Of a stretch of DNA of 64,000 nt, positions 81 through 13,340 are shown piece after piece. How positions within the stretch are numbered: position 1 is the first letter of the stretch; each line of letters begins with the position of its first letter. The stretch is from Betaproteobacteria bacterium. Lineage in GTDB: Bacteria > Pseudomonadota > Gammaproteobacteria > Burkholderiales > Rhodocyclaceae. The stretch lies in the NCBI GenBank assembly GCA_016234745.1, contig JACRAR010000059.1:3347-67346 (forward strand), in the 5' to 3' direction. The notes below the pieces were generated by a model. The model ran no database searches, was not told where the DNA came from, and saw nothing but the letters and a program-made list of their open reading frames with translations. Made by a program: the position numbers and the translations under genes.

Positions 81-2150
81 TTGCACTTCCCGACCCAGGT
101 CAGCCTAGCCGTATTGGAGGAATTGGCAGGCAAGCGCTGGATCGTCAAGACGCGGGCATATGTTCCAAAACGGCTGCGCAAAGAACAAGATGAACTGACC
201 GATTTCGAAAAGGCCGTCAAAGTTCGACGCAAAACCGTTGTCAGCAGCTTCATGTCGGATGAAGACCTGCTCCGGATCTTTGAATATGGGCAAATGGGCC
301 GCTACGTTGCCCGTGCGGTCGAGGAACACAATGCCGAGCTAACTGACGAAGACGAAAAGCTTACCCGCTATCACGTCTACCAGGTGGTCTATCGATATTG
401 GCTTCTTGCCTGTGTCGACAACGCACTCATTTCCGACAGCGGGAATTGTGGTGCTCCAGGGAAATACAGAAACCCGGGGAAAGCCAAGCGTGGAAGAACG
501 CCCGATCGTGTGCTGACCGGACATGCTCCAGACAAAGTGGGCGTCAATACCGGCCCCGATGACCGAGCCCTCATCTGGCTTGCCTGGGACAACTATGGCG
601 GCAAGCTTGGTAAATACGCAGCCGCCTACAATAAGATGCTCGAAGACTATTTCAGCAAAGGCTGGCATGAAGACGAGCACGGCTGCTGGGTACCGACAAT
701 ACATTCACTCGAGCAGCGGCCAAGCCTGGAAATTTTTCGGTATTACGTCAAACGCAAATATACCCCTGTTGATCTGCTCAAGCAGCTCATACCCAGTATC
801 ACTTGGCAACAAACCAGACGCGCATTGAAGGGAAAAGCCGCCGACAAGCTATTCGGACCCGCACAAACCTTCATGATCGACTCCACGGTAGCGGATGTCT
901 ACCTGGTCAGTACCTTCAATCCCTATTGGATCATCGGCAGGCCGATAGTCTATCTGGTGAGGGATGTCTGGTCGGGGATGATCGTCGGGGTTCATGTGGC
1001 ACTTGAAGGTCCAAACTGGCACACGGCGCGATTGGCAATTTACAACGCCTTTAGCCCCAAGGGCGAGTTTCTGCGAAGCTTCGGCTTCAATATGACCGAT
1101 GAACACTGGCCGTGCGCGCACGGCTGCCTCAGTCTGTTTCATGACCGCGGTGAATCCCTGTCGATTCCAAGCACCGACAGCGCCAATGTCCTAAGAATCA
1201 TCCTCAGCGCCTGTGCGTCATTTCGCCCGGATTCAAAAGGTCCGATCGAAACCATGTTCAATTGGCTCAACCTCGAAACCGTTCATTGGTTGCCAGGCGC
1301 TGTCCGGTCTCGTCAGCGGGAACGCGGCCAGCGCGACTATCGCCTCGATGCGACGCTCACGCTTTATCAGTTTACTCGCATCATCATTCACGCCATCCTC
1401 ACCTTTAACAGGACAGCGAATATGGGCGATCGGCTGGTCGGGCCAATCGCTGGCCTCGAGATCAAACCTACGCCAACTAACTTGTGGTGCTGGGGCCTGG
1501 AAAATCTCCATGGTTCACCGCCGCAGTGGGATCAGGACACTCTGTACACAGCCTTGCTTCCCAGCAGCATGGCCTCGATACGGGCGGACGGAATTCATTT
1601 TGCGGGGCGCTGCTACCAAGGCGCGATCTCGGACAAGGAGCAATGGCAGGAAACCGCCCGGGCGTTTCATTCCGGCAAACTGAAGGTCAAATACCATCCC
1701 AATAATCCGCAGCAGATTTTCGTGCTCAACGAGATGACGGGGAATTATGAAACGCTGAATATGCACGCCGGCCAGCAGATGCCGGAACATGTGCGTTTCG
1801 AAGAAATCGTCGATTGCCTGAAATATCGGCACTTTATCCACAAAGGGGACGAAGACGTCAGGTTGCTGGACCGGATCGGGCATAACCGGTTCCGAGACGA
1901 AGAAATCAAGAAGGCCGAGGAAACCCGCGCAAACGCGATTCCGCCGGCATCGAAGTCCGAACATCTCTCCGGGATTCAGGATAAACGCAGCTTCGAAGCG
2001 ATGGTTCACCGTCTCCTGGAGTCAGCCCAAGACATGCCGGCAGTGAATGCGCCGCGCGATGACGCCATTTCAACCGCCGCTTGTGACGCCCCTTCCGATT
2101 TGCTTTCCAAACTATTGGCCGAAACGGCCGAGGAGATTGAACATGTCTAG
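81..2150 (+). CDS. DDE transposase, TnsB/TniA (Mu/Tn7 integrase-core) family
   Basis: 689-aa ORF with rve-type catalytic signatures: FMIDSTVADVYLV (first Asp) and HDRGESLS (Glu). Length and C-terminal extension fit TnsB/MuA-type proteins. The start (TTG at 81) is uncertain. Confidence 0.8.
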   Translation: MHFPTQVSLAVLEELAGKRWIVKTRAYVPKRLRKEQDELTDFEKAVKVRRKTVVSSFMSDEDLLRIFEYGQMGRYVARAVEEHNAELTDEDEKLTRYHVYQVVYRYWLLACVDNALISDSGNCGAPGKYRNPGKAKRGRTPDRVLTGHAPDKVGVNTGPDDRALIWLAWDNYGGKLGKYAAAYNKMLEDYFSKGWHEDEHGCWVPTIHSLEQRPSLEIFRYYVKRKYTPVDLLKQLIPSITWQQTRRALKGKAADKLFGPAQTFMIDSTVADVYLVSTFNPYWIIGRPIVYLVRDVWSGMIVGVHVALEGPNWHTARLAIYNAFSPKGEFLRSFGFNMTDEHWPCAHGCLSLFHDRGESLSIPSTDSANVLRIILSACASFRPDSKGPIETMFNWLNLETVHWLPGAVRSRQRERGQRDYRLDATLTLYQFTRIIIHAILTFNRTANMGDRLVGPIAGLEIKPTPTNLWCWGLENLHGSPPQWDQDTLYTALLPSSMASIRADGIHFAGRCYQGAISDKEQWQETARAFHSGKLKVKYHPNNPQQIFVLNEMTGNYETLNMHAGQQMPEHVRFEEIVDCLKYRHFIHKGDEDVRLLDRIGHNRFRDEEIKKAEETRANAIPPASKSEHLSGIQDKRSFEAMVHRLLESAQDMPAVNAPRDDAISTAACDAPSDLLSKLLAETAEEIEHV

Positions 2151-3645
2151 AGTACTCAAGGATATCCCCGCCGACTATCAGACCATTTTGGCACCGGCCG
2201 CCTATGTGGGTAACCCGCTCATCGAGACGCTTCCGAGAATTTTCACCGAAGATGATGTCAGGGAGGACCTTCGCCATTTTCCGAAGTCAGCCTCGGCAGT
2301 CGAGCGGGCACTACCTCCTCACGAGCGGTTGCACTGCGTCTCGGCTATCGACGACCTTGTCATTCCAATGCCCGTAGCGTTTGATGTTGAAGCCGCACTA
2401 TCGGTCCTGATCCGGCGCGGTTATGCAGCGCGCAACCCCTTCAACCGGGAATGGCGCCGCAAGCATTTCCAAATCAAGGAATCCATGAGTGAACCACTCG
2501 AACAATATCAGGTTCGCTGCAAAAGCGTTCCGGCAATCATGGTCACCGGCGTCAGCGGTGGTGGCAAGACCACCCTTATCGAAAGCCTGCTGGAAATGTA
2601 CCCGCAGACCATCATTCACACGGCGTACAAGGGCAATTCGTTCAACTTCAAGCAACTTGTGTGGATTGGGGTGAACGCCAGTTTCGATGCGAGTCTCAAG
2701 GGTCTTGTGCTTGCCATGTTTGGTGCAGTGGATGCGGCGCTTGGAAAAGACTACCGCAGTCAGTTCGAAAGATCCAAGGCCTCCATCGACACCCTAATTG
2801 GTCATCTGTCCGTAGTCTTCACTACTCACCATCTTGGCGTTCTGTTCGTCGATGAAATCCAATGCCTGATGTTGCGTGGTGATGAGGAGGCAAAACTGGC
2901 ATTGAGTCTCTTCCTCAAGATCGCCAATGTCTGCAAGGTGCCAATTGTGTTTGGCGGGACCTATGCGGCCGTGAGGCTCTTCTCGAAGGTGGCGCGAAAC
3001 GCGCGCCGTGTTTGCAGTGGCGGCTATTTCGACCTTGCCTTGCCTGCATCTTTTGAAGACGTGATTTGGGACAAGCTCGTCGTCGAAGTCATCTGGAACA
3101 AATATCAGTGGGTAAATCAGCCGGCACCTCTGATGGACGACTTACGCAAGTTGCTCTTCAAGCTGACGCAAGGAATCCTGGCAATTCTGGTTGCTTTGCA
3201 TCGGGCGAGTCAGGTCTATGCGATTCGGCATGGCATGAATACAGTCGATGCCGCGGTGTTGAATAAGGTCTACGAAACGCAGTTCGTGTTGCTGCACCCG
3301 GCACTCGATGCGCTCCGATCAAACAAGAAGAATCGACTTGAAAAGTTCGAGGACCTGCTACCCCCAAAGGATCAGATGAGCACTCTGCTGCGCCCAAGCA
3401 ATGATGAAGCACTTTTGGAGCGCATCCAACGACTATTTGCAGCAGCCCAGAACGACGCTGCGACAGTGGAAAACGAGGGGGAAGAGCCAGGGAACGCGCT
3501 GTCGATTCCCAAGGCCGCCAATTCTGCAGGTGAAGCATCGCAGGCAGCAGCGCGCTTGATGGAGCAAATCCGCCTTAATCCGGCCCTAAAGGAACTTGCC
3601 CGAAGGTCTGGCTTGATTGGTAGCGAGGAGTGCGGCACAACTTAG
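2143..3645 (+). CDS. AAA+ transposition ATPase, TnsC/TniB family
   Basis: Walker A GVSGGGKTT and Walker B VLFVDEIQ. An AGGAG Shine-Dalgarno lies 7 nt upstream of ATG 2143. The start overlaps the transposase stop codon. The longer track ORF (from 2047) lies inside the transposase gene. Confidence 0.8.
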   Translation: MSRVLKDIPADYQTILAPAAYVGNPLIETLPRIFTEDDVREDLRHFPKSASAVERALPPHERLHCVSAIDDLVIPMPVAFDVEAALSVLIRRGYAARNPFNREWRRKHFQIKESMSEPLEQYQVRCKSVPAIMVTGVSGGGKTTLIESLLEMYPQTIIHTAYKGNSFNFKQLVWIGVNASFDASLKGLVLAMFGAVDAALGKDYRSQFERSKASIDTLIGHLSVVFTTHHLGVLFVDEIQCLMLRGDEEAKLALSLFLKIANVCKVPIVFGGTYAAVRLFSKVARNARRVCSGGYFDLALPASFEDVIWDKLVVEVIWNKYQWVNQPAPLMDDLRKLLFKLTQGILAILVALHRASQVYAIRHGMNTVDAAVLNKVYETQFVLLHPALDALRSNKKNRLEKFEDLLPPKDQMSTLLRPSNDEALLERIQRLFAAAQNDAATVENEGEEPGNALSIPKAANSAGEASQAAARLMEQIRLNPALKELARRSGLIGSEECGTT

Positions 3646-3717
3646 ACGACGATTTTCGCAAGGGTGCGCTGCGAAGCATAACGCAGCGCGATAACCCGTA
3701 AACAGCAACTGGAGAAA

Positions 3718-4209
3718 ATGATGCATAAGAAGGATGATTTGACTTGGCGGTTGCTCATGACCATTCCCGCAGGAATTCTCATGTTCATCGGCCTTGCTGT
3801 CTTGGCAAATGGCGGATCTGACCGCGGAACACCCAGCCGCATTGCTCTCATGAGTCCAGGGTGCGAATTGGTACGCATGACCGGCGTCAGAATTGAGGTA
3901 GTCAGGGGCGACGGTACCTGCGTAATCAGGGGATATGTTCGTCAAAGAGTTTTTTCTAGCGACGTACTGATTGATCTAGGTACTGGAATTGTCTTGGATA
4001 TTGGCGGACACCAAGTGGCTGGACATGTGGCGGACGAGTCTTTCAACGCGCCCTTGGGGTCCGGCCAATTACAGACCATGTGGATCGGGGCTGGAGTCCT
4101 CGTAGCGTCGGCAGCGCTCCTGGCGTTTGCCTTCTGGCCTTTTGGACGGGATACCTACACGGGCCGGAATAATAACGACGGAACGGGCAATGGAGGTAGT
4201 TCATCATGA
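3718..4209 (+). CDS. Hypothetical membrane protein (N- and C-terminal TM helices flanking a beta-rich domain)
   Basis: GGAG directly upstream of tandem ATGs. Hydrophobic segments IPAGILMFIGLAVLA and WIGAGVLVASAALLAFAFW. The stop overlaps the next start (ATGA at 4206-4209). Confidence 0.5.
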   Translation: MMHKKDDLTWRLLMTIPAGILMFIGLAVLANGGSDRGTPSRIALMSPGCELVRMTGVRIEVVRGDGTCVIRGYVRQRVFSSDVLIDLGTGIVLDIGGHQVAGHVADESFNAPLGSGQLQTMWIGAGVLVASAALLAFAFWPFGRDTYTGRNNNDGTGNGGSSS

Positions 4210-4640: not shown

Positions 4641-4699
4641 GGACATCCAAAGGGATGTCGGTATGCGGTGACCTTGTCTACTTGAGGAGAAAATTCAAA

Positions 4700-5362
4700 A
4701 TGAAACGCGCAAAAAAGAGGCCGCCGTTACTCCTTAGGCGGTTTTTCGCTGTACCGCGAACGATGAGTCGCGCCATTAATAGGGCGGTGGCTTCTGTTTC
4801 CGTTTCGAATCGGAAGACAGCGAGGCGGAAGAAAGAGTATGCGTTGCGCGATCTGCTCGCCCAAATGCCGAATGGTTTCCCAATGGACGAAGAGATGCGT
4901 ACATGGGACCAAATGGAGCCGGTCGGCAGCGAGTTCGGTGCGGTCGAGATCTGGGAGGAAGACGGCGAATTCGTCGCCAGATGCAACGATCCTGAGGTGG
5001 CCAGTGAAGGCCGGACAGAGGAAGAGGCGCTGGCCAATCTGAGGGAGGCGTTAAGTCTCTACTACGAGGGCCAGAACAAAGACGCTTACATTGATCTAGC
5101 CCACCGCGTTAGCCAGCTCGAAGATCGAGTGCGTAGCCACGGAATCATGCTGAATGAGGCTGCGGCTCAGGTAAGCGCCATATCAAGAGGTCGCATAGGA
5201 GTGGCCAAAGACCAGGTCGAAGTACCGGAAGACATCGACGCCAGAAACGATGAAGTGAAATGCCTATTCACTAACGGAGACCACGACTGGCAACGCGACG
5301 GCCAGACCCTGACCGCGGTCCGCTGGACATGCAGCAAATGCGGGGTGACGCGCCTATTGTGA
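4700..5362 (+). CDS. Mosaic antitoxin-like protein (MazE/AbrB-tail-like, HicB/UPF0150-like and DUF2281-like segments)
   Basis: GAGGAG lies ~10 nt upstream of ATG 4700; the track ORF starts at 4655. Three segments are reminiscent of antitoxin families: LRDLLAQMPNGFPMDEEMRTWDQMEPVGSEF (MazE-type tail), EIWEEDGEFVARCNDPEVASEGRTEEEALANLREALSLYYE (HicB fold) and GVAKDQVEVPEDIDARNDEVKCLF (DUF2281-type tail). There is no adjacent toxin gene. Confidence 0.45.
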   Translation: MKRAKKRPPLLLRRFFAVPRTMSRAINRAVASVSVSNRKTARRKKEYALRDLLAQMPNGFPMDEEMRTWDQMEPVGSEFGAVEIWEEDGEFVARCNDPEVASEGRTEEEALANLREALSLYYEGQNKDAYIDLAHRVSQLEDRVRSHGIMLNEAAAQVSAISRGRIGVAKDQVEVPEDIDARNDEVKCLFTNGDHDWQRDGQTLTAVRWTCSKCGVTRLL

Positions 5363-5600: not shown

Positions 5601-6587
5601 CTAGTATCCGAGGTAGGGGATGGATGATTCAATTACATCGGCAGCGATACCATGCTGTTGGAGCAACCGCTCGACGGACTCACGGCGCTTCGTCTTGTCA
5701 GGGTGCGGCCCAACAATGACTTTCCGAATCGGCAAGACCGCGTTGCGCCCTAGATTCGAGGTGCCGAACAGCTTGACATAGGGAATCAATAGACCAGATC
5801 GGGGCCTAAAGAACAACTCTTTCTGCGGGCGAGCCTCGCCATCACGCTTCTCCTCCCGCCATACCCGTGGGACAGAACGCAAAGCTGCAATCCTCACTTC
5901 AGACTCCTCCTGAAAGCCTCGGTGCTTGGAACGGATACTGAGTTGTACGAGCGGCTGGTACATTTGCTCAAGCAGTTCACGCGCCCCGCTAACTACAAAT
6001 TGCCTTATCGCATCCTGAACCTTGTGTTCATCCTCCAAGGTCTCTGGTAGCGGAGTCCCGTGCTCACTCGAACCATCGTAGTGATAGTCGACATCGCACA
6101 AAAGAAGCGTCTGATGATGGAAGGCCTTGCTCTCCAATTCGAGCAAACTCTCGATGCCAGTCGTTTCGAAGACGATCGCATATCCGCCATCTTGTCCGTA
6201 GCCTCGCCATTGGCTAAGCAGGCCGTCGTTGGGATCAGTCCGTGGAGGTGCACTGAACGAGGCAATATATGGATCGTCCAATTCCAGCGACAGTTCCATG
6301 ATTCCTGAGTGAAGGCGCTGCGAAATATCTGCTGCGCGTTCCCTGATCTCCTCTTCACTACACTCCACCGAATGTGGCGTCGTCGCCAACTGGGACTTCA
6401 AGGCATCCAGGGTCCACTGCGACAGCAGAACTGGAAGTCTGCGCTTAAGATATCCAATTTGCTCCTCGGCGTCGTTCAGGTAAGCAATGCTCGTGGCGTA
6501 TATTTTCTGGCTCGTAATGATGCCAGTCAACCCAGCAGCATTCGTGTAGTGGTAGAGCAATGGCTTTTCTTCTGAGACTTTGCCCAT
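5601..6587 (-). CDS. DUF2971 family protein
   Basis: The N-terminal motif LLYHYTNAAGLTGIITSQKIYATSIAYLNDAEE matches the DUF2971 signature (YHYT...LND.E). GGGAG lies ~8 nt upstream of ATG 6587. Confidence 0.65.
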   Translation of the reverse strand: MGKVSEEKPLLYHYTNAAGLTGIITSQKIYATSIAYLNDAEEQIGYLKRRLPVLLSQWTLDALKSQLATTPHSVECSEEEIRERAADISQRLHSGIMELSLELDDPYIASFSAPPRTDPNDGLLSQWRGYGQDGGYAIVFETTGIESLLELESKAFHHQTLLLCDVDYHYDGSSEHGTPLPETLEDEHKVQDAIRQFVVSGARELLEQMYQPLVQLSIRSKHRGFQEESEVRIAALRSVPRVWREEKRDGEARPQKELFFRPRSGLLIPYVKLFGTSNLGRNAVLPIRKVIVGPHPDKTKRRESVERLLQQHGIAADVIESSIPYLGY

Positions 6588-6614: not shown

Positions 6615-7802
6615 TTATTGGGCAAGGCCGCTAGCGATGTTCTCCATTTCGCTGGAACAACTGCGGACCCGCTCGACAATTTCTCTCACTGACATCCCGC
6701 CGTCTGCGTGGACCCGCATGGTTTCTGTGAGGTGCAGCATGCGGCCGATCTTCCGCAGCTTCGCCTTCAATCCATCCTGAAGCTCATCAATGTTGTAGTA
6801 GCTGATCTGGGCAATCGTGTGTCCGAGCGTCGCCCCCTCCGACTGAAGATCCTTGTGACGGGTGTTCGCCATATCGTCTGCGCGAGAGGCTAGGCCGGCC
6901 AATTTGCGTGCTGTCGATTTTATGAGCTCACGCACGGCACCGAGCGCCGCCGTCATGGGTATCGGGTCGATGCGCTCGGCCATTAGATTGGAGGCTAACT
7001 CGCCAATCTGCTTGTTCGCAGCCCTGATGTCGCTGCCCGAACCAATAAAGAGTGGCATGTTGGCGAAGTGGTCCAACTGATCGGCGAGTTCTTTCATCTG
7101 GGTGTCGACCGCTTCCTCGACCGCAACTTGCGATGCGGCCAGATGCCGCAATTGACTTGCGGACGACTCGAACGACCAGCGCCACTGGTCCAGCCACGGG
7201 TTCACCTGGCGCTGGTCGGCTTCATCCACGAAAATGAGCACCTCCGCTAGGATCCGCGCGAGTTCTGTATATAGCTCGGACTTTGCCTTGGACGCGGCGT
7301 CGACCTGTGATGCATTCGACTGCTCCAGATAATCCTTGACCTTCTCGATGACTTCGTGGGGCTCAGCAGGCCGTGAGGTGGTCAAGTGGCGAATGTACGG
7401 TGTGTTGTTGCTGTAGTAGAGCGGCTGCGAGCCTTTGGGCACCGACAATACAAGTACGACGGCGTCGGCCTCAACGGCAAATCGGGCCTCGGGAATGATT
7501 GCCGGTTTCACGGTAGCTCTTGAGATTCCCTCCAGGCGTTGCATGGCGTCATCACGTCCCTTTGAATTCCAGCACCCGGGCAATCCGACCAGGTCGCCGT
7601 CATCCGACACCCCAATCAGGATCATTCCCCCGTTGGAAGACGCGAATGCGGCAATCTCTTTCCCCAGGTCGCGGGTGTTCTCAGGAAAGTTGACCTTGTA
7701 CTCCATGTCTTGGCCCTCGCCTCGGGACCGCAGGACGGAGAGGTCGCGCGACAGCGCCGCGTCGGCCCAGTCTGGAATCTGCGATTTAATAGGTGTCGTC
7801 AT
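6615..7802 (-). CDS. AlbA_2 (Schlafen-core / divergent AAA_4) domain protein with an all-helical C-terminal domain
   Basis: N-terminal GEGQDMEYKVNFPENTRDLGKEIAAFASSNGGMILIGVSDDGDLVGL is the typical AlbA_2 pattern (E.K......l.k.i.AfaN..GG.l.iGv.d.g.i.G). The start overlaps the upstream stop (ATGA at 7799-7802). Confidence 0.6.
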   Translation of the reverse strand: MTTPIKSQIPDWADAALSRDLSVLRSRGEGQDMEYKVNFPENTRDLGKEIAAFASSNGGMILIGVSDDGDLVGLPGCWNSKGRDDAMQRLEGISRATVKPAIIPEARFAVEADAVVLVLSVPKGSQPLYYSNNTPYIRHLTTSRPAEPHEVIEKVKDYLEQSNASQVDAASKAKSELYTELARILAEVLIFVDEADQRQVNPWLDQWRWSFESSASQLRHLAASQVAVEEAVDTQMKELADQLDHFANMPLFIGSGSDIRAANKQIGELASNLMAERIDPIPMTAALGAVRELIKSTARKLAGLASRADDMANTRHKDLQSEGATLGHTIAQISYYNIDELQDGLKAKLRKIGRMLHLTETMRVHADGGMSVREIVERVRSCSSEMENIASGLAQ

Positions 7803-8836
7803 GCTTCAGCATTTCCTAAAGCGGAATGGCGAATTGCGACGCGGGTGCCTGAGAAGGAATAGTCGTCAGTACACAATGCTGCCATGTAAGGCTCATTAAA
7901 GCTCTTTAACACGTAGTCGTGAAGAGATACGAAAATATTTGATTGAAGCGTTGTAAACCCACCACCGAGAACTTCGTGGCGCAGAGAGGCGCATTTCCAC
8001 GCATTGCGCAAACTAAAGGCAGTGGAGGGCGTGTCAGCAAAGTCCAGTACATCAAATAGCTGTTTCCCCACCAATACACGTCCCTTGCTTGAGTGGTCGG
8101 TTAGCCGAAAAAAGCGGTCTACCTCTATCCCCACAAAGTCAGAACGTACGATAGAGGCGACCTTTCCAGTCGCGTGATTCGTGATCATCGGAATTGCGGC
8201 AAGATTACCCATCAACTTTTTGAATAATTCATCGCCGGCCGTTATGGGGCCTTTTCCGCAGCACCGGGCAACTATTGGAGAAATTGCAGGTACTCGCCCC
8301 GGCCCAATATCAAAACCCTCGATCAAATCGCAGGTGATCTTAAGGGGTAGTTCCAGTCTCATCGTATCGTCGAACTCATCGAGTCCATCCGGATGGACTA
8401 TAGGCGCGCTTGGCAGGAAGACAATTGCTGGCGACTTGGAGAGTACAGCCAGTAGTGCCCTCAATAGATGGCGGGCATGTTGAGCAACATCGAAGTCATT
8501 TAAGTCCTGGAGCGAATAGGAATACCACCACTCGTCGCCAATTGCCTTTATCAGGAACAACCTGTCCAGTTCGTATGCGCATGGCTGTTGGTTTATCTGC
8601 GCGGCTTCATTTTCCGCGATGAGAAGGTCAAGAAATAGCTTCTCCGTCGCGATCAGGCCACGCGCGAATTCCTCATGGGCTAATGACGTAGCCAGACCCC
8701 ATTTTGCGGCAAACGTGGCTAGCCGTTCCTTGATGACGGTGGAGTCAGCTATGTCAATTGAAATTGATATAAATTTTGTCAACTGTACTATCGGGCGGAC
8801 CGTATCCGAACTATTCGAACCTGTCTGCACAGTCAT
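7799..8836 (-). CDS. Class III nucleotidyl cyclase-like (cyclase homology domain) protein
   Basis: Three motifs in the order expected for class III cyclases: ISIDIADSTVIK (cf. F.DI.GFT), LIKAIGDEWWY (cf. K.IGD..M) and DFVGIEVDRFFRLTDHSSKGRVLV (cf. D.wG..VN.AsR.es....g.i.vs). AGGAG lies 8 nt upstream of ATG 8836, so the longer track start at 8926 is unlikely. Confidence 0.5.
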   Translation of the reverse strand: MTVQTGSNSSDTVRPIVQLTKFISISIDIADSTVIKERLATFAAKWGLATSLAHEEFARGLIATEKLFLDLLIAENEAAQINQQPCAYELDRLFLIKAIGDEWWYSYSLQDLNDFDVAQHARHLLRALLAVLSKSPAIVFLPSAPIVHPDGLDEFDDTMRLELPLKITCDLIEGFDIGPGRVPAISPIVARCCGKGPITAGDELFKKLMGNLAAIPMITNHATGKVASIVRSDFVGIEVDRFFRLTDHSSKGRVLVGKQLFDVLDFADTPSTAFSLRNAWKCASLRHEVLGGGFTTLQSNIFVSLHDYVLKSFNEPYMAALCTDDYSFSGTRVAIRHSALGNAEA

Positions 8837-8886
8837 ATTGGCGCTCCTGCAGCAATTTGGGGCGACCGAAGTCGCCCCAAGACCGT

Positions 8887-9072
8887 TCAACGGTGGCTGT
8901 CCGGTGTTACTTTCACGGGTGTCCAACCGTGGCCTGGCTTGGTCGTGGGCGGCAGCGGCCGGTTGTCCGGCACAGTCGTGTAATTCGGCTGTCTGCCGCC
9001 TCTGGGTCCGACTTCCTGAAAGATACCACCACCGTTTCCAGTATTCTGGCCGGGCTTTTTCGATATTGCCAT
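8887..9072 (-). CDS. Small Gly/Pro-rich protein (61 aa), first ORF of the cassette
   Basis: AAAGGAAA lies 7 nt upstream of ATG 9072. Product is MAISKKPGQNTGNGGGIFQEVGPRGGRQPNYTTVPDNRPLPPTTKPGHGWTPVKVTPDSHR, which is low-complexity, so coding status is uncertain. Confidence 0.3.
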   Translation of the reverse strand: MAISKKPGQNTGNGGGIFQEVGPRGGRQPNYTTVPDNRPLPPTTKPGHGWTPVKVTPDSHR

Positions 9073-9294: not shown

Positions 9295-11640
9295 TCACGC
9301 CTTGCCCCGTACCTGCGTACGCGCTCGAACGGCCAGGTTCTGTGCCTGAAATCTGTTCCGGACGATCTGCGCTACTTCGTCATAGACCGGCGCCTTACTT
9401 TCTGGATCGGCGATCGTGATAATCAATGAGAAGGGCTGCGGCTTGAAAGCAGCCTCTTCCTTCTCGATGCCGTGCCGTGTCAACAAGCGCAGCATTAGAC
9501 GCCAACGGTTCCCACGCTCGCCACTATCGTTGAGGCGTCCGTGATAAGTACGCACCGGCGCCCACTTCCGTAGTTTCTCCACCTGGTAAGACTCATAGAG
9601 TTGGCCGGGATTGCGATGTTCGGGGGGGACAAGTCCCGTGAACACCTGCTTTATTTCGCCAGTATCACGCGACACGCGGTCGCGATATACGCCAAGGTGA
9701 GCTTCGATGTGGGTCTCGCAGTATTCGGTGCCCCACCGGGAGCCCCGTGCAGGGGCGAAGGCCAGCGTCATCCAGATTTCCCCGAAGTACTTGCCGTCCC
9801 GCTTCAGCGATGCAGGATAGGGGAAGTTATCCCACTCCAGGAAGTAGCCAGGTCGCAGGGTGTCGTCGAACACCAGCGTAGCGGTGTGCGGAGTGCATTC
9901 CAGGCAGTACGGCAGCCCTGCCGGAAGGCCAAAGCCGAGAAAGTTTTCCTCTCCGTCGGGAACGCGGGTCCCTGACCGTGGATCTCGTGCATGGTGCGTG
10001 AGCAGTGCTCTAGCTAATACCGGGGTTGGTGTTGGTGTAATCTGGTGATATATCTGCGCCAGCGTCCGTGAGACAAGCGGTGTGGCAAAACTGGTTCCAA
10101 GATCCTCCACCAGGCCAGCGCCTGTGACCGACCGAATTCCATGCACATGTACCGCGTCGGTCGAGCACGAGCCACCGTAATGCACCAAGTCGGGTTTGAT
10201 GATATGGTTCGGGCCAGCCCCGTGACGCGAGAATGCGGATGGCTGATGTTGCTTCGGCCCATTAGCCTTGTAGCCGACATGTGAAACCGACCCAACGGTG
10301 ATGCCCAGAACGCTGTCAGCCGGAGAGGTGATACGACCGGAATCGAGTTGTGTCAGGGTCCGGGGAAAGTCGAGAAGCGGTGGCGTCGCATAGTTTCCAG
10401 CGCTGATCACAAACGATACCTGGTACTTCTCCTGCAGATTGTCCAATTCTTCAGCCATTTCCGAAAACTCGTCCATCGAGCAGATGCTGTCCGTCCCTAG
10501 TGAAAAATTCCAGACCTTGTACTTGTTGGCGTGCAACCGCAGCGCGGACTCGAGTGACGCTAACAACTCGTGCTCGAGTAGCGCCGACGTCTCGCCACGT
10601 GCCGGGTCATCATTCGGGATCACCTGCAGATCGAACACAGCGCAAGGGCTATCATCAACACCCGCGAGCGTCGGGTTTAGCACGCCACCCCAGCAGATAA
10701 GTCCAGCCACAAAGGTTCCGTGATCTGTGTTCTGGTCATACGGCGCAGCGACGTCGCAAATACGGCCCATAACCCATGAGTCCAAGGCAGGGATGTTCTT
10801 TGAAATACCACTATCCACCACGACCACGACAGGTACGTCTGCGTCGCTTGTATCCCGCGACGGCATGGGGGGAAGCGCCTGCTGATTCATCATGCGCGGC
10901 CGGATCATACGTATCAGAGGCATGTTGGAGATGGTACGCACCCCGATGATGCGCGACAGCGCTTCGACGTCGGCCACCGTATTGCAATCGGCCGCGTAGA
11001 CAAAACTGCGCGCAGAATAGCCGCGCTGGTCAAGACGAATCCCTCTCTCCACACAGACGGCTTCGAAATTGGCAACGAGGGCCAGATGATCATCATCGGC
11101 ACCATAATCAAACAGCCGAATGCGGGTAACAAATCTGTCCCGGCGGCGCGGGCTACGGCGCAATATGTCTTCCGCATTCATCCCACGGCGCCGAAGGGTC
11201 GGTGTCACCGGTTCGATGCTCTCGATGCAAGAAATCTCCTTGATAATCTGCTCGGAGGTATTGCTCTCGATCATTTGGGTAAGGCGATCCAATCCCTCAG
11301 GTGTGGCTTTGATGAACAACTCGCCAAGCTGACCTGCGCTGATGATAGGGCAGGATTGATCGGAAAACAGCTTCTCCGGCCGATGGCTCTTGGCGGCAGC
11401 CTTCGCCATGACCTTGACGCGGACGGGTGCGGATTTTGTCAGCTTGAGTTGAGGCAGGATGGCTTCTCTAATGGCGCCGAGTTGGTTGGATAGTCGTTTG
11501 CGGTACTTGGCGTCGACTTCGCGGAAGGGTTGAGGTGGAGCTCCGCCGCCTGGAACGCGGCGCTCCGTTCCCTGCTTGGGCATGATCAGCTTGATCGGCA
11601 GGCGTTCGCGGAGTTGGTCGCTTGGATTGTTTTCAGCCAT
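9295..11640 (-). CDS. ietS: S8 (subtilisin-like) serine peptidase, IetS-like
   Basis: Catalytic triad contexts VVVVDSGI (Asp), DHGTFVAGLI (His) and GTSFATPLVS (Ser). The ~260-aa N-terminal domain is of unknown function. The start overlaps the upstream AAA+ gene by 8 nt. Confidence 0.75.
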   Translation of the reverse strand: MAENNPSDQLRERLPIKLIMPKQGTERRVPGGGAPPQPFREVDAKYRKRLSNQLGAIREAILPQLKLTKSAPVRVKVMAKAAAKSHRPEKLFSDQSCPIISAGQLGELFIKATPEGLDRLTQMIESNTSEQIIKEISCIESIEPVTPTLRRRGMNAEDILRRSPRRRDRFVTRIRLFDYGADDDHLALVANFEAVCVERGIRLDQRGYSARSFVYAADCNTVADVEALSRIIGVRTISNMPLIRMIRPRMMNQQALPPMPSRDTSDADVPVVVVVDSGISKNIPALDSWVMGRICDVAAPYDQNTDHGTFVAGLICWGGVLNPTLAGVDDSPCAVFDLQVIPNDDPARGETSALLEHELLASLESALRLHANKYKVWNFSLGTDSICSMDEFSEMAEELDNLQEKYQVSFVISAGNYATPPLLDFPRTLTQLDSGRITSPADSVLGITVGSVSHVGYKANGPKQHQPSAFSRHGAGPNHIIKPDLVHYGGSCSTDAVHVHGIRSVTGAGLVEDLGTSFATPLVSRTLAQIYHQITPTPTPVLARALLTHHARDPRSGTRVPDGEENFLGFGLPAGLPYCLECTPHTATLVFDDTLRPGYFLEWDNFPYPASLKRDGKYFGEIWMTLAFAPARGSRWGTEYCETHIEAHLGVYRDRVSRDTGEIKQVFTGLVPPEHRNPGQLYESYQVEKLRKWAPVRTYHGRLNDSGERGNRWRLMLRLLTRHGIEKEEAAFKPQPFSLIITIADPESKAPVYDEVAQIVRNRFQAQNLAVRARTQVRGKA

Positions 11641-12793
11641 GATCCTCCCCTTCCCGTTTTGACAGCCGGTGGATGGTTGCCTTCGACAGCCCCGTTAGTT
11701 CTGCAAGCATGCCCAGACTATACAAACGCTGATCGCGCTCCCTCAGCGCATGCACAACATCCGCCACGTCCTTGTTGGCAAACCGAGCGACGAATCTTGC
11801 TCCGTCCTCCGCCCCGATCGCCAGATTCTGCAATACTGGAAAGGTGTCCTTGAGTTGCAGTGGTTGGCCAGTGGAAAAATGGCGGCGCTTCAATCGAGCA
11901 CAGGCCTCGCGGATATCGGAGCCAGAAAATCCTTCGGATAAATCTGAAAGGACAGTGAGATCACGCTGTGAAAATTGAGTAGGCTCGATGAAATCGGCCC
12001 ACATCCGTTCTCGCTGTTCAGGTGACGGCAGCTGCAGCGCCAAGCGGTAGGTGAAGCGCCGCCACACGGCGGCATCTAACAGCGTTTCGTGGTTTGTAGC
12101 CGCAAGGACAATAGATTGACGGCCGAGTGTGTCGAGGTTCTGTAGAAAACTATTGACCACGCGCTTCAACTCACCCAACTCCTGACTGTCGCTGCGCAGC
12201 TTGGCGATTGCGTCGAACTCATCAAGGAATAACACGCAGGGCGTTTTTGCGGCGAAGTCGAATAGAGCGCGGATGTTCTTCGACGTGCTGCCGAGATAAG
12301 ATGAAATCAAACCATCCAGACGGGCGACATAGAGTTCAAGCCCTAACTCCTTGGCGATGTGACGCGCCAGACGACTCTTGCCAGTGCCAGGCGGACCGTA
12401 CATGAGAAAGCTGAGAGCGCCTGACAATTCGGTGCTGTCCAGCGTAGCGTAGCTTTTCGCCACACTGGCGAATTCATTGACTACATCCCACTGCGGCTGC
12501 GAGAGCTGGACGGGCGGCTCTTGCATAGTTTTGAGCTTGACATGCTCAACGAGGGGAAACCGGCTCTCTGCATCAACCGGCAATGCCGTTGAAAATCGGA
12601 CATCGGCCGGGCGCAGCTGTTTATCCGTCTCCTCAAGCATCTTGCGCAAACGATGGGCTGTACTCGTCTCGCCCTCATTTTCGAGCTTTTCGGCGAGAAA
12701 GGCCGTATAATTTCTGACCTTATCTAGGTCGAGACGAAGTGCGCCATTGACGATACGCACAAGTTCATTAATGAAACGAATATCTGTACTCAT
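11633..12793 (-). CDS. ietA: AAA+ ATPase, IetA-like
   Basis: Walker A GPPGTGKS, Walker B VLFLDEFDAI and second region of homology ATNHETLLDAAVWRRF. I prefer the ATG at 12793 (MSTDIRF...) over the TTG at 12922, whose N-terminal extension is low-complexity. Confidence 0.75.
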   Translation of the reverse strand: MSTDIRFINELVRIVNGALRLDLDKVRNYTAFLAEKLENEGETSTAHRLRKMLEETDKQLRPADVRFSTALPVDAESRFPLVEHVKLKTMQEPPVQLSQPQWDVVNEFASVAKSYATLDSTELSGALSFLMYGPPGTGKSRLARHIAKELGLELYVARLDGLISSYLGSTSKNIRALFDFAAKTPCVLFLDEFDAIAKLRSDSQELGELKRVVNSFLQNLDTLGRQSIVLAATNHETLLDAAVWRRFTYRLALQLPSPEQRERMWADFIEPTQFSQRDLTVLSDLSEGFSGSDIREACARLKRRHFSTGQPLQLKDTFPVLQNLAIGAEDGARFVARFANKDVADVVHALRERDQRLYSLGMLAELTGLSKATIHRLSKREGEDHG

Positions 12794-13340
12794 GAAACGA
12801 TTATGATATACAGAGAGACGATTGTCAACCCAAAAGAAACGGTGGTGGCGGGTTAATGGAGATGAAGGCGGCACGCTGTCAGGGTGATCAGCGGAGCCAT
12901 GCGGCATCCTTGTCACGCCCAAACTTGGAGAATGCAGATAGCTACTGTCGAGCGCCGACGACGTTCTAGTCTCGCCTTCGCTTGCCCCAGAGGGCAGCTA
13001 TGAAGTTTTGTCTCCACCATTGCAAGACATTGGAATGCACGGCCACATTTACAAGCCTATGAATTTAAAGGATCGTGTGTCTTCCTCTTTATTTGTGCAT
13101 ACCAATATGCGCCAAATATTTCGACTAATCGCCCTTTCGTGCCTATTGTTCGCGCCAGTCCTGGTTTATTTTCGCCGGTACGGAAAAATCTTGATGCAAA
13201 TCAACGATACTCTCTATGCATGAATGATAACGTCCGTGCATAGCTGGAGGCCAAACCTGCTTGTCTTGGCATGGCAGGCCTCAACTGATCATTCTTGGTG
13301 GCGTCCTGCCCGTAAATGAACTCGGAGACCCGTTCTTCAA

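Follow-up and report, generated by a model that had tools for sequence, protein, structure and literature searches.

An unannotated class III nucleotidyl cyclase family with four insertions, found beside known defence genes in at least nine bacterial lineages

The gene described here lies at 7799-8836 on the minus strand of a 64,000-nucleotide stretch (the window) of contig JACRAR010000059.1, from a Betaproteobacteria bacterium of the Rhodocyclaceae (assembly GCA_016234745.1). It encodes a protein of 345 amino acids (aa) that has the fold and the conserved catalytic set of a class III nucleotidyl cyclase, carries four insertions and has neither an attached domain nor a conserved partner gene. 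The ATG start at 8836 is preferred because a Shine-Dalgarno sequence, AGGAG at 8848-8844 (-), can be read directly 7 nucleotides (nt) before it, because the product is identical to a deposited hypothetical protein of a Betaproteobacteria metagenome-assembled genome (P0001, HY847_10625) and because the N-termini of homologues fit it; a longer TTG start at 8926 (375 aa) was rejected, since the homologues agree with the ATG. At the other end of the gene, its stop codon and the start codon of the next gene share the 4 nt ATGA. The original prediction, made from the letters of the sequence, had recognized a divergent class III cyclase homology domain by three motifs in the characteristic order, and these are indeed present as described: FISISIDIADST at residues 22-33, KAIGDEWWY at 97-105 and DFVGIEVDRFFRL...GRVLVG at 233-257. 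The conserved elements are as follows, with counts taken over the 125 members of the family alignment.

Residues 22-36, 8729..8773 (-): motif 1, FISISIDIADSTVIK, aligned to FADLCGFT; strand beta1 with D28, a GST-like phosphate loop (S32, T33) and K36 (125/125)
Residue 28, codon 8753-8755 (-): D28, first metal-binding Asp of F-x-D-x-x-G-F-T (123/125)
Residue 65: E65, within insertion 1 (122/125)
Residues 95-107, 8516..8554 (-): motif 2, LIKAIGDEWWYSY, aligned to K-x-IGD; beta2-beta3 hairpin with K97, G100, D101, E102 and W104 (each 125/125), in which K97-x-x-G-D101 is the canonical K-x-I-G-D hairpin
Residues 163-181, 8294..8350 (-): LPLKITCDLIEGFDIGPGR, with K166 (121/125), which like K311 is a phosphate-binding basic position, at the Arg position of R-I-G-I-H-T-G in the hhalign register; D170 (121/125) and R181 (119/125) are near-invariant and family-specific
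Residues 231-257, 8066..8146 (-): motif 3, RSDFVGIEVDRFFRLTDHSSKGRVLVG, aligned to D-x-W-G-x-x-V-N-x-A-x-R-L...g-x-I-L-V-S; R231 (125/125), D233 (124/125), G236 (122/125), D240 (124/125), R244 (124/125) and the strand GRVLVG ending in G257 (124/125)
Residues 309-318, 7883..7912 (-): VLKSFNEPYM, the terminal hairpin, canonically L-K-G-x...Y/F; K311 corresponds to the phosphate-binding Lys (of 125 members, 106 have K and 7 have R), followed by Y317 (115/125)

This register comes from a profile-profile comparison between the family alignment, which holds 125 diverse members 17-58% identical to the query, and a canonical set of 13 annotated adenylate/guanylate cyclase domains from plasmids, which had been gathered by tblastn with a consensus-like query. 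By hhalign, the two profiles matched at P = 7.3e-5 over the N-terminal 75 columns, and with a permissive alignment threshold at P = 4.7e-5 over residues 20-338, in a full-length register. D28 and D101 align to the canonical metal-binding D19 and D63, and R244 to the transition-state Arg of helix alpha4. The base-specifying pair, K97 (four residues ahead of D101) and D233 (three ahead of G236), follows the Lys/Asp pattern of adenylyl cyclases, not the Glu/Cys type for GTP. Five of the six canonical catalytic positions are at least 98% conserved in the family; at the sixth, that of the catalytic Asn four residues before the Arg, Asp (D240) is found in 124 members. The original prediction held that the substrate-specifying residues could not be read by eye, so that the product might be cAMP, cGMP, cCMP, cUMP or nothing. 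Once aligned, these residues can be read, and the field is no longer open: judged from them, cAMP is probably the product and stands as the leading guess.

The fold was examined by structure prediction. A first AlphaFold run, given eight close homologues only, was poor, with a predicted local distance difference test score (pLDDT) of 51 and non-significant Foldseek matches to cyclases and GGDEF domains, and it was not relied on. With the 125-sequence alignment, AlphaFold gave a model of pLDDT 91.2 and predicted template-modelling score (pTM) 0.89, which contains the palm beta-alpha-beta-beta-alpha-beta core together with the class III elaborations. When this model was compared with the PDB by Foldseek, the top 50 matches were all catalytic domains of class III adenylyl or guanylyl cyclases (E from 1.6e-7 to about 5e-6, probability 1.0). 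The best was sGC (4ni2_B, E = 1.6e-7), and the others included CyaC, Ma1120, Cya2, rhodopsin-GC (RhGC), CyaB and GC-A. In total, 102 PDB matches were found at E <= 1e-3, and the target-normalised TM-scores against isolated catalytic-domain chains were 0.50-0.75. Proteins with guanylate cyclase domains also ranked first in a viral structure library. The predicted cyclase homology domain is thus borne out both by the profile comparison and by the superposition of structures, that is, by fold and by residue register.

The structural alignments to cyclase domains of about 190 aa span some 305-315 columns; therefore, the whole 345-aa protein is a single enlarged cyclase homology domain with no second domain. 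Together with the lack of any Pfam match, this upholds the earlier statement that no sensor, transmembrane or cyclic-nucleotide-binding domain is attached. A putative transmembrane segment at residues 124-142 was rejected, as these residues form a core helix and a strand in the model and the maximum Kyte-Doolittle value of any 19-mer is 1.6. Relative to the canonical class III domain, about 150 residues are added in four insertions, placed by the model and by hhalign.

Residues ~50-92, 8561..8689 (-): insertion 1, a 32-residue helix (H50-81) and a loop by the secondary structure of the model, with a 23-residue gap in hhalign
Residues ~143-157: insertion around the arm region
Residues ~177-213, 8198..8308 (-): insertion 3, helices H178-192 and H203-212 between the K166 strand and the strand before the catalytic helix, overlapping the K166-strand segment at residues 177-181
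Residues ~265-303, 7928..8044 (-): insertion 4, extra beta strands between helix alpha5 and the terminal hairpin

The first of these accounts for the feature that had drawn attention to the gene. D28 and D101 are 73 residues apart, as had been counted, whereas the canonical spacing is 44, both in the 13 class III domains (D19-D63) and in EaPycC (D102/D146; PMC11224242); the extra residues lengthen the second helix of the model to the 32 residues of H50-81. The claim of an unusually long insert thus stands, with the refinement that it is not peculiar to this gene but is one of the four family-wide insertions. Across the family the spacing ranges from 60 to 84 residues with a mode of 62, and the subfamily of the query (68-73) lies near the upper end.

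Compared with known class III adenylyl and guanylyl cyclase domains (PF00211; Spirulina CyaC, 1WC0; Mycobacterium avium Ma1120, 5D0E; Synechocystis Cya2, 2W01; human sGC, 4NI2), the family has the same fold over the whole protein and the same order and register of the metal-binding Asp pair, the K-x-x-G-D hairpin, the D-x-x-G...R helix and the terminal L-K-G hairpin, and it shares the Lys/Asp base-specifying positions with the adenylyl cyclases. It differs from them in being invisible to PF00211, in its spacing (73, or 60-84 over the family, against 44) and four insertions, in the replacement of the catalytic Asn by Asp, in the Glu after the second metal-binding Asp, in its extra invariant charged residues and in the absence of a regulatory domain.

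A cyclase-like fold need not be an enzyme. The cytoplasmic domain of AdvA, a cell-division protein of Acinetobacter baumannii, resembles the present family in having a cyclase-like fold that is invisible to sequence comparison and recognised by structure alone. It lacks the catalytic and dimerisation sites and belongs to a divisome protein with a transmembrane region, providing a precedent for cyclase homology domain-like folds without catalysis (bioRxiv 10.64898/2026.04.03.716176). A catalytically dead scaffold of this kind might also be suspected from one relative, P0008, which is without the first Asp motif. However, the present family is soluble and stand-alone, unlike AdvA, and it keeps the catalytic residues: every canonical catalytic position except the Asn is at least 98% conserved in 125 members that share as little as 17% and at most 58% identity with the query. 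Therefore, the active site appears to be a working one, the opposite of a degenerate scaffold, and a dead protein is extremely improbable. P0008 itself (313 aa, on a 1.4-kb metagenome contig) also has a disrupted hairpin motif (KIIGDMAEEKNW) while its C-terminal half is kept, and at two loci, L011 and L012, the cyclase gene appears to be split into two open reading frames (ORFs); all three may be decaying copies.

The family has so far escaped sequence models. The 345-aa protein matched nothing in Pfam, including PF00211, and none of the PADLOC PycC models at E <= 1, and nothing in NCBIfam, PADLOC or PHROGs even at permissive thresholds. Sequence and profile searches of PDB chains returned noise only (a phage tail protein, L37a and exportin), tblastn of phage and plasmid collections found no match to the gene, and literature searches found no description of this cyclase family. 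A search of 5.8 billion clustered proteins yielded only eight relatives, all unnamed and 30-100% identical in their alignment. From the alignment of these eight, an exhaustive hidden Markov model search recovered 162 proteins at E <= 1e-3 among 1.84 billion cluster representatives; when the 125-sequence alignment was used in a word-indexed profile search, only 10 proteins were returned. The distribution is patchy: a strict motif scan, using a degenerate DNA pattern for D[YF][IV]G.E[IV]DRFFR, found 27 loci in 185,579 species genomes, and the hosts are scattered over Alpha-, Beta-, Gamma-, Delta- and Zetaproteobacteria, Binatia and Acidobacteriota. The protein thus belongs to an unannotated and structurally elaborated class III cyclase family.

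Two architectures occur in the family, one of about 300-360 aa, like the query, and a longer one of about 500-550 aa, in which some 170 residues are added at the N-terminus. The long form is represented by P0020, P0023, P0027 and about 30 further members (for example at loci L014, L030-L032 and L034-L036). By profile, its extension weakly resembles the HD hydrolase domain of RelA/Rel (PDB 5xnx, E = 0.08; 8fr8, E = 0.15), and two members match Pfam HD_4 weakly (E = 0.06), with the His-Asp dyad replaced. From these resemblances, the extension may be a degenerate alarmone-binding sensor domain.

In the window, the cyclase gene lies among genes for transposition and defence, which are listed here from left to right.

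81-4209 (+): Tn7/Tn5053-like transposition genes, encoding a 689-aa protein with a Mu-transposase C-terminal domain, a 532-aa TniB/AAA_22 ATPase and a 163-aa ORF product without a match
4655-5362 (+): 235-aa protein with a DUF7387/UPF0150 (HicB-like) segment, between the transposition genes and the defence cassettes
5601-6587 (-): 328-aa DUF2971 protein (phrog_1762), 27 nt downstream of the AlbA_2 gene
6615-7802 (-): 395-aa Schlafen-AlbA_2 protein; the AlbA_2 domain is N-terminal, and the C-terminal half (about 250 aa) is helical and uncharacterised
7799-8836 (-): the cyclase gene
8859-8878: GC-rich hairpin with a perfect 8-bp stem, GGGGCGAC-TTCG-GTCGCCCC, lacking a T-tract and following the 61-aa ORF
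8887-9072 (-): 61-aa ORF beginning MAISKKPGQNTGNGGGIFQEVGPRGG, a full-length match to phrog_3202 (unknown function; E = 1e-22), conserved in a sister contig (L050)
9295-11640 (-): IetS, an S8 subtilase, a full-length match to PADLOC IetS (E = 0)
11633-12922 (-): IetA, an AAA ATPase with a C-terminal helix-turn-helix, of the Gao_Iet system by PADLOC

The cyclase gene is thus directly preceded, on its own strand, by a complete Gao_Iet defence system (9295-12922, -). The hairpin ends 10 nt upstream of the Shine-Dalgarno sequence of the cyclase gene and 22 nt upstream of its ATG. Housekeeping GGDEF/EAL genes begin at 13.3 kb. The G+C content (GC) is 49.8% in the cyclase gene, 55% in the segment from 4.2 to 13 kb and 60% in the rest of the window. 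The transposition genes at the left and the low GC of the region from 1 to 16 kb suggest that the defence genes are transposon cargo. The sister contig holds IetS, the small ORF, the cyclase gene and the AlbA_2 gene in the same order as the window; DUF2971 is missing from this otherwise syntenic contig and is therefore a separate cassette.

The overlap with the AlbA_2 gene raises the question of whether the two form one system, in which the cyclase would be the signalling half and the AlbA_2 protein a nucleotide-activated effector. Their 4-nt overlap (ATGA) implies that the two genes are transcribed together and coupled in translation, and it is this pair, not DUF2971, that is kept in the sister contig. 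However, an AlbA_2 neighbour is absent from the other loci of the family, about 29 in number, including that of a 58%-identical homologue from Sulfurisoma; moreover, the AlbA_2 protein has no cyclic-nucleotide-binding domain in Pfam. The AlbA_2 family is also far larger, comprising at least 277 clusters of proteins of about 390 aa each, and other defence islands contain it in the absence of the cyclase. A two-gene system is accordingly quite improbable, and AlbA_2 was rejected as an obligate partner because it is not conserved with the cyclase family. Elsewhere, members of the AlbA_2 family are found beside Shedu SduA_C, DUF3800, RES-Xre and CcdAB (L052) and near TniQ (L051), and the AlbA_2 protein may itself be a candidate for defence on its own.

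The neighbours of the family as a whole were compared over 30 loci, taken from look-ups of exact proteins and from the genome pattern scan with its 27 loci. All-against-all BLAST found no recurrent neighbour in these 30 loci, apart from those shared by the same or near-identical loci and one weak, position-inconsistent pair. Because of this, and because the AlbA_2 family is far larger and found without the cyclase, the cyclase is an autonomous unit of one gene, which is coupled to AlbA_2 just in the lineage of the window. At two contigs (L006 and L008, 1602-3008), a distant member, P0124, is followed after 76 nt on the same strand by a gene for a 468-aa protein without a Pfam match; this protein is present in both contigs that extend past the P0124 gene and was not found beside other members. 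In at least nine independent lineages, the cyclase has known defence genes as its neighbours.

Window and L050: IetAS
L001: BamHI/BglII-type restriction-modification, DUF4238 and others
L004: GAPS4
L009: Upx
L015: type I HsdS and a reverse transcriptase
L017: PD-Lambda-4
L030: Avs2
L031: SIR2
L036: HEC-06/Orf5-like

A PADLOC scan of 107 pooled neighbours gave one DRT UG5-nitrilase match (E = 0), which is probably the L015 reverse transcriptase, as well as a type IIG restriction-modification enzyme, a dGTPase and several PDC candidates. The neighbours also include integrases, a resolvase and a transposase. The L015 locus, from Mariprofundus erugo, is a textbook defence hotspot: a family member (1677-2606) sits just behind hsdS inside a type I restriction-modification operon and is followed by the gene for a 1012-aa defence-type reverse transcriptase.

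It should be considered whether the enzyme is an ordinary physiological cyclase, for example a source of cAMP for a CRP-type regulator, which came to lie in variable regions by chance. Several loci have housekeeping neighbours only (a lyase, cytochrome oxidase and deoxyhypusine synthase), an effector is nowhere linked, and class III cyclases consisting of the catalytic domain only do exist, as exemplified by Ma1120, one of the top structural matches. However, a housekeeping role fits poorly with a family that is extremely rare and patchy, with the atypical GC of the gene, with transposition genes that bound the region on the left and an IetAS system that directly adjoins, and with at least nine independent lineages in which known defence genes are neighbours. 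An ordinary physiological function therefore seems rather unlikely.

Taken together, the protein is best read as a member of a rare, unannotated class III nucleotidyl cyclase family that would be active, probably ATP-using and autonomous, with a likely role in defence; judged from sequence, model and genomic setting, this reading is given a probability of about 60%. Several findings tell against it. First, the protein fails every curated sequence model, and only one of its 125 relatives reaches PF00211 (E = 0.001). Second, a cyclase without a receptor is unusual for immune signalling, since in Pycsar, Pucsar and CBASS alike the effector lies next to the cyclase. Third, in about half of the loci no defence gene can be recognised within the 8-kb pieces retrieved, and some of the neighbours are housekeeping genes. 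Fourth, the active site departs from the canonical one: the Asn that orients the ribose is Asp in all but one member; an invariant Glu follows the second metal-binding Asp (GDE, in IGDE-x-W), as in GGDEF domains; and extra charged residues, seven in number and including K36, E65, D170, R181 and R231, several of them in or beside insertions, are invariant or near-invariant and have no canonical counterpart.

From this last group of departures, it follows that the substrate and product could differ from ATP and cAMP and that the chemistry may be non-canonical. An active enzyme of the same fold might make a cyclic pyrimidine nucleotide or cGMP, produce linear or cyclic oligonucleotides in the manner of GGDEF or Cas10 proteins, or transfer a nucleotide to some other acceptor. 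The GDE after the hairpin Gly recalls the GG(D/E)EF motif, and immune cyclases have in fact diversified in substrate, using UTP, CTP, GTP and, by prediction, ATP. On the other hand, the invariant K97 and near-invariant D233 form the adenylyl cyclase signature in the aligned register. Furthermore, affiliation with GGDEF was rejected: the protein has no match to PF00990 or to Pfam in general, no GGDEF or Cas10 structure is among the top 50 structural matches, and a control comparison of the family profile with the two GGDEF domains of the window itself was non-significant (P = 0.06), in a topologically wrong, non-homologous register. A different chemistry is thus an unlikely alternative, though one to be taken seriously, and conversion of ATP is preferred.

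In structure, the family stands nearest to ordinary class III adenylyl and guanylyl cyclase domains; in biology, it stands nearest to the cyclases of the Pycsar and Pucsar systems, PycC and PucC. The latter are likewise small class III-type cyclases of defence islands, rapidly evolving and horizontally mobile, and in some of their clades, as in EaPycC (PMC11224242), additional beta structure at the C-terminus lies near the active site. The present family differs from them in the residues that specify the base, which are not those reported to determine CTP and UTP in EaPycC and BcPycC. Unlike the Pycsar and Pucsar cyclases, it also has no adjacent effector with a transmembrane region or with a cyclic nucleotide-binding domain (CNBD) joined to TIR; the AlbA_2 and DUF2971 neighbours in the window are without a CNBD, and no effector is conserved in the 30 loci.

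If the enzyme works as the active, autonomous cyclase preferred here, it would be a homodimer in head-to-tail arrangement, with two divalent cations and a purine nucleoside triphosphate (NTP), most likely ATP, as its ligands, and would release pyrophosphate and 3',5'-cAMP or a closely related product. It would act as a one-gene module, most likely in anti-phage defence, and the insertions with their invariant charged residues may hold the enzyme off until infection. The two likeliest options for its output are signalling through unlinked cyclic nucleotide receptors and draining of the NTP pool.

A bolder version would make this protein an immune module complete in itself. Infection would be sensed through its own insertions, or, in the long forms, by the degenerate RelA/SpoT-type HD domain through alarmones, and the cell would then be killed or arrested either by exhaustion of ATP or by an undescribed messenger made with the help of the Asn-to-Asp change and the GDE motif. 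This proposal is speculative and rather doubtful. To our knowledge, every cyclic-nucleotide immune system described so far (CBASS, Pycsar, Pucsar, type III CRISPR and Panoptes) pairs its cyclase with a linked receptor-effector, and a one-protein module would, if true, be the first effector-less cyclase defence system.

Cyclic-nucleotide immunity has so far been mapped largely by means of existing domain profiles, and the present family is invisible to those of Pfam, NCBIfam and PADLOC. If its members are active, they would enlarge the catalogue of nucleotide-based immunity and pose the question of what a cyclase without an effector does.

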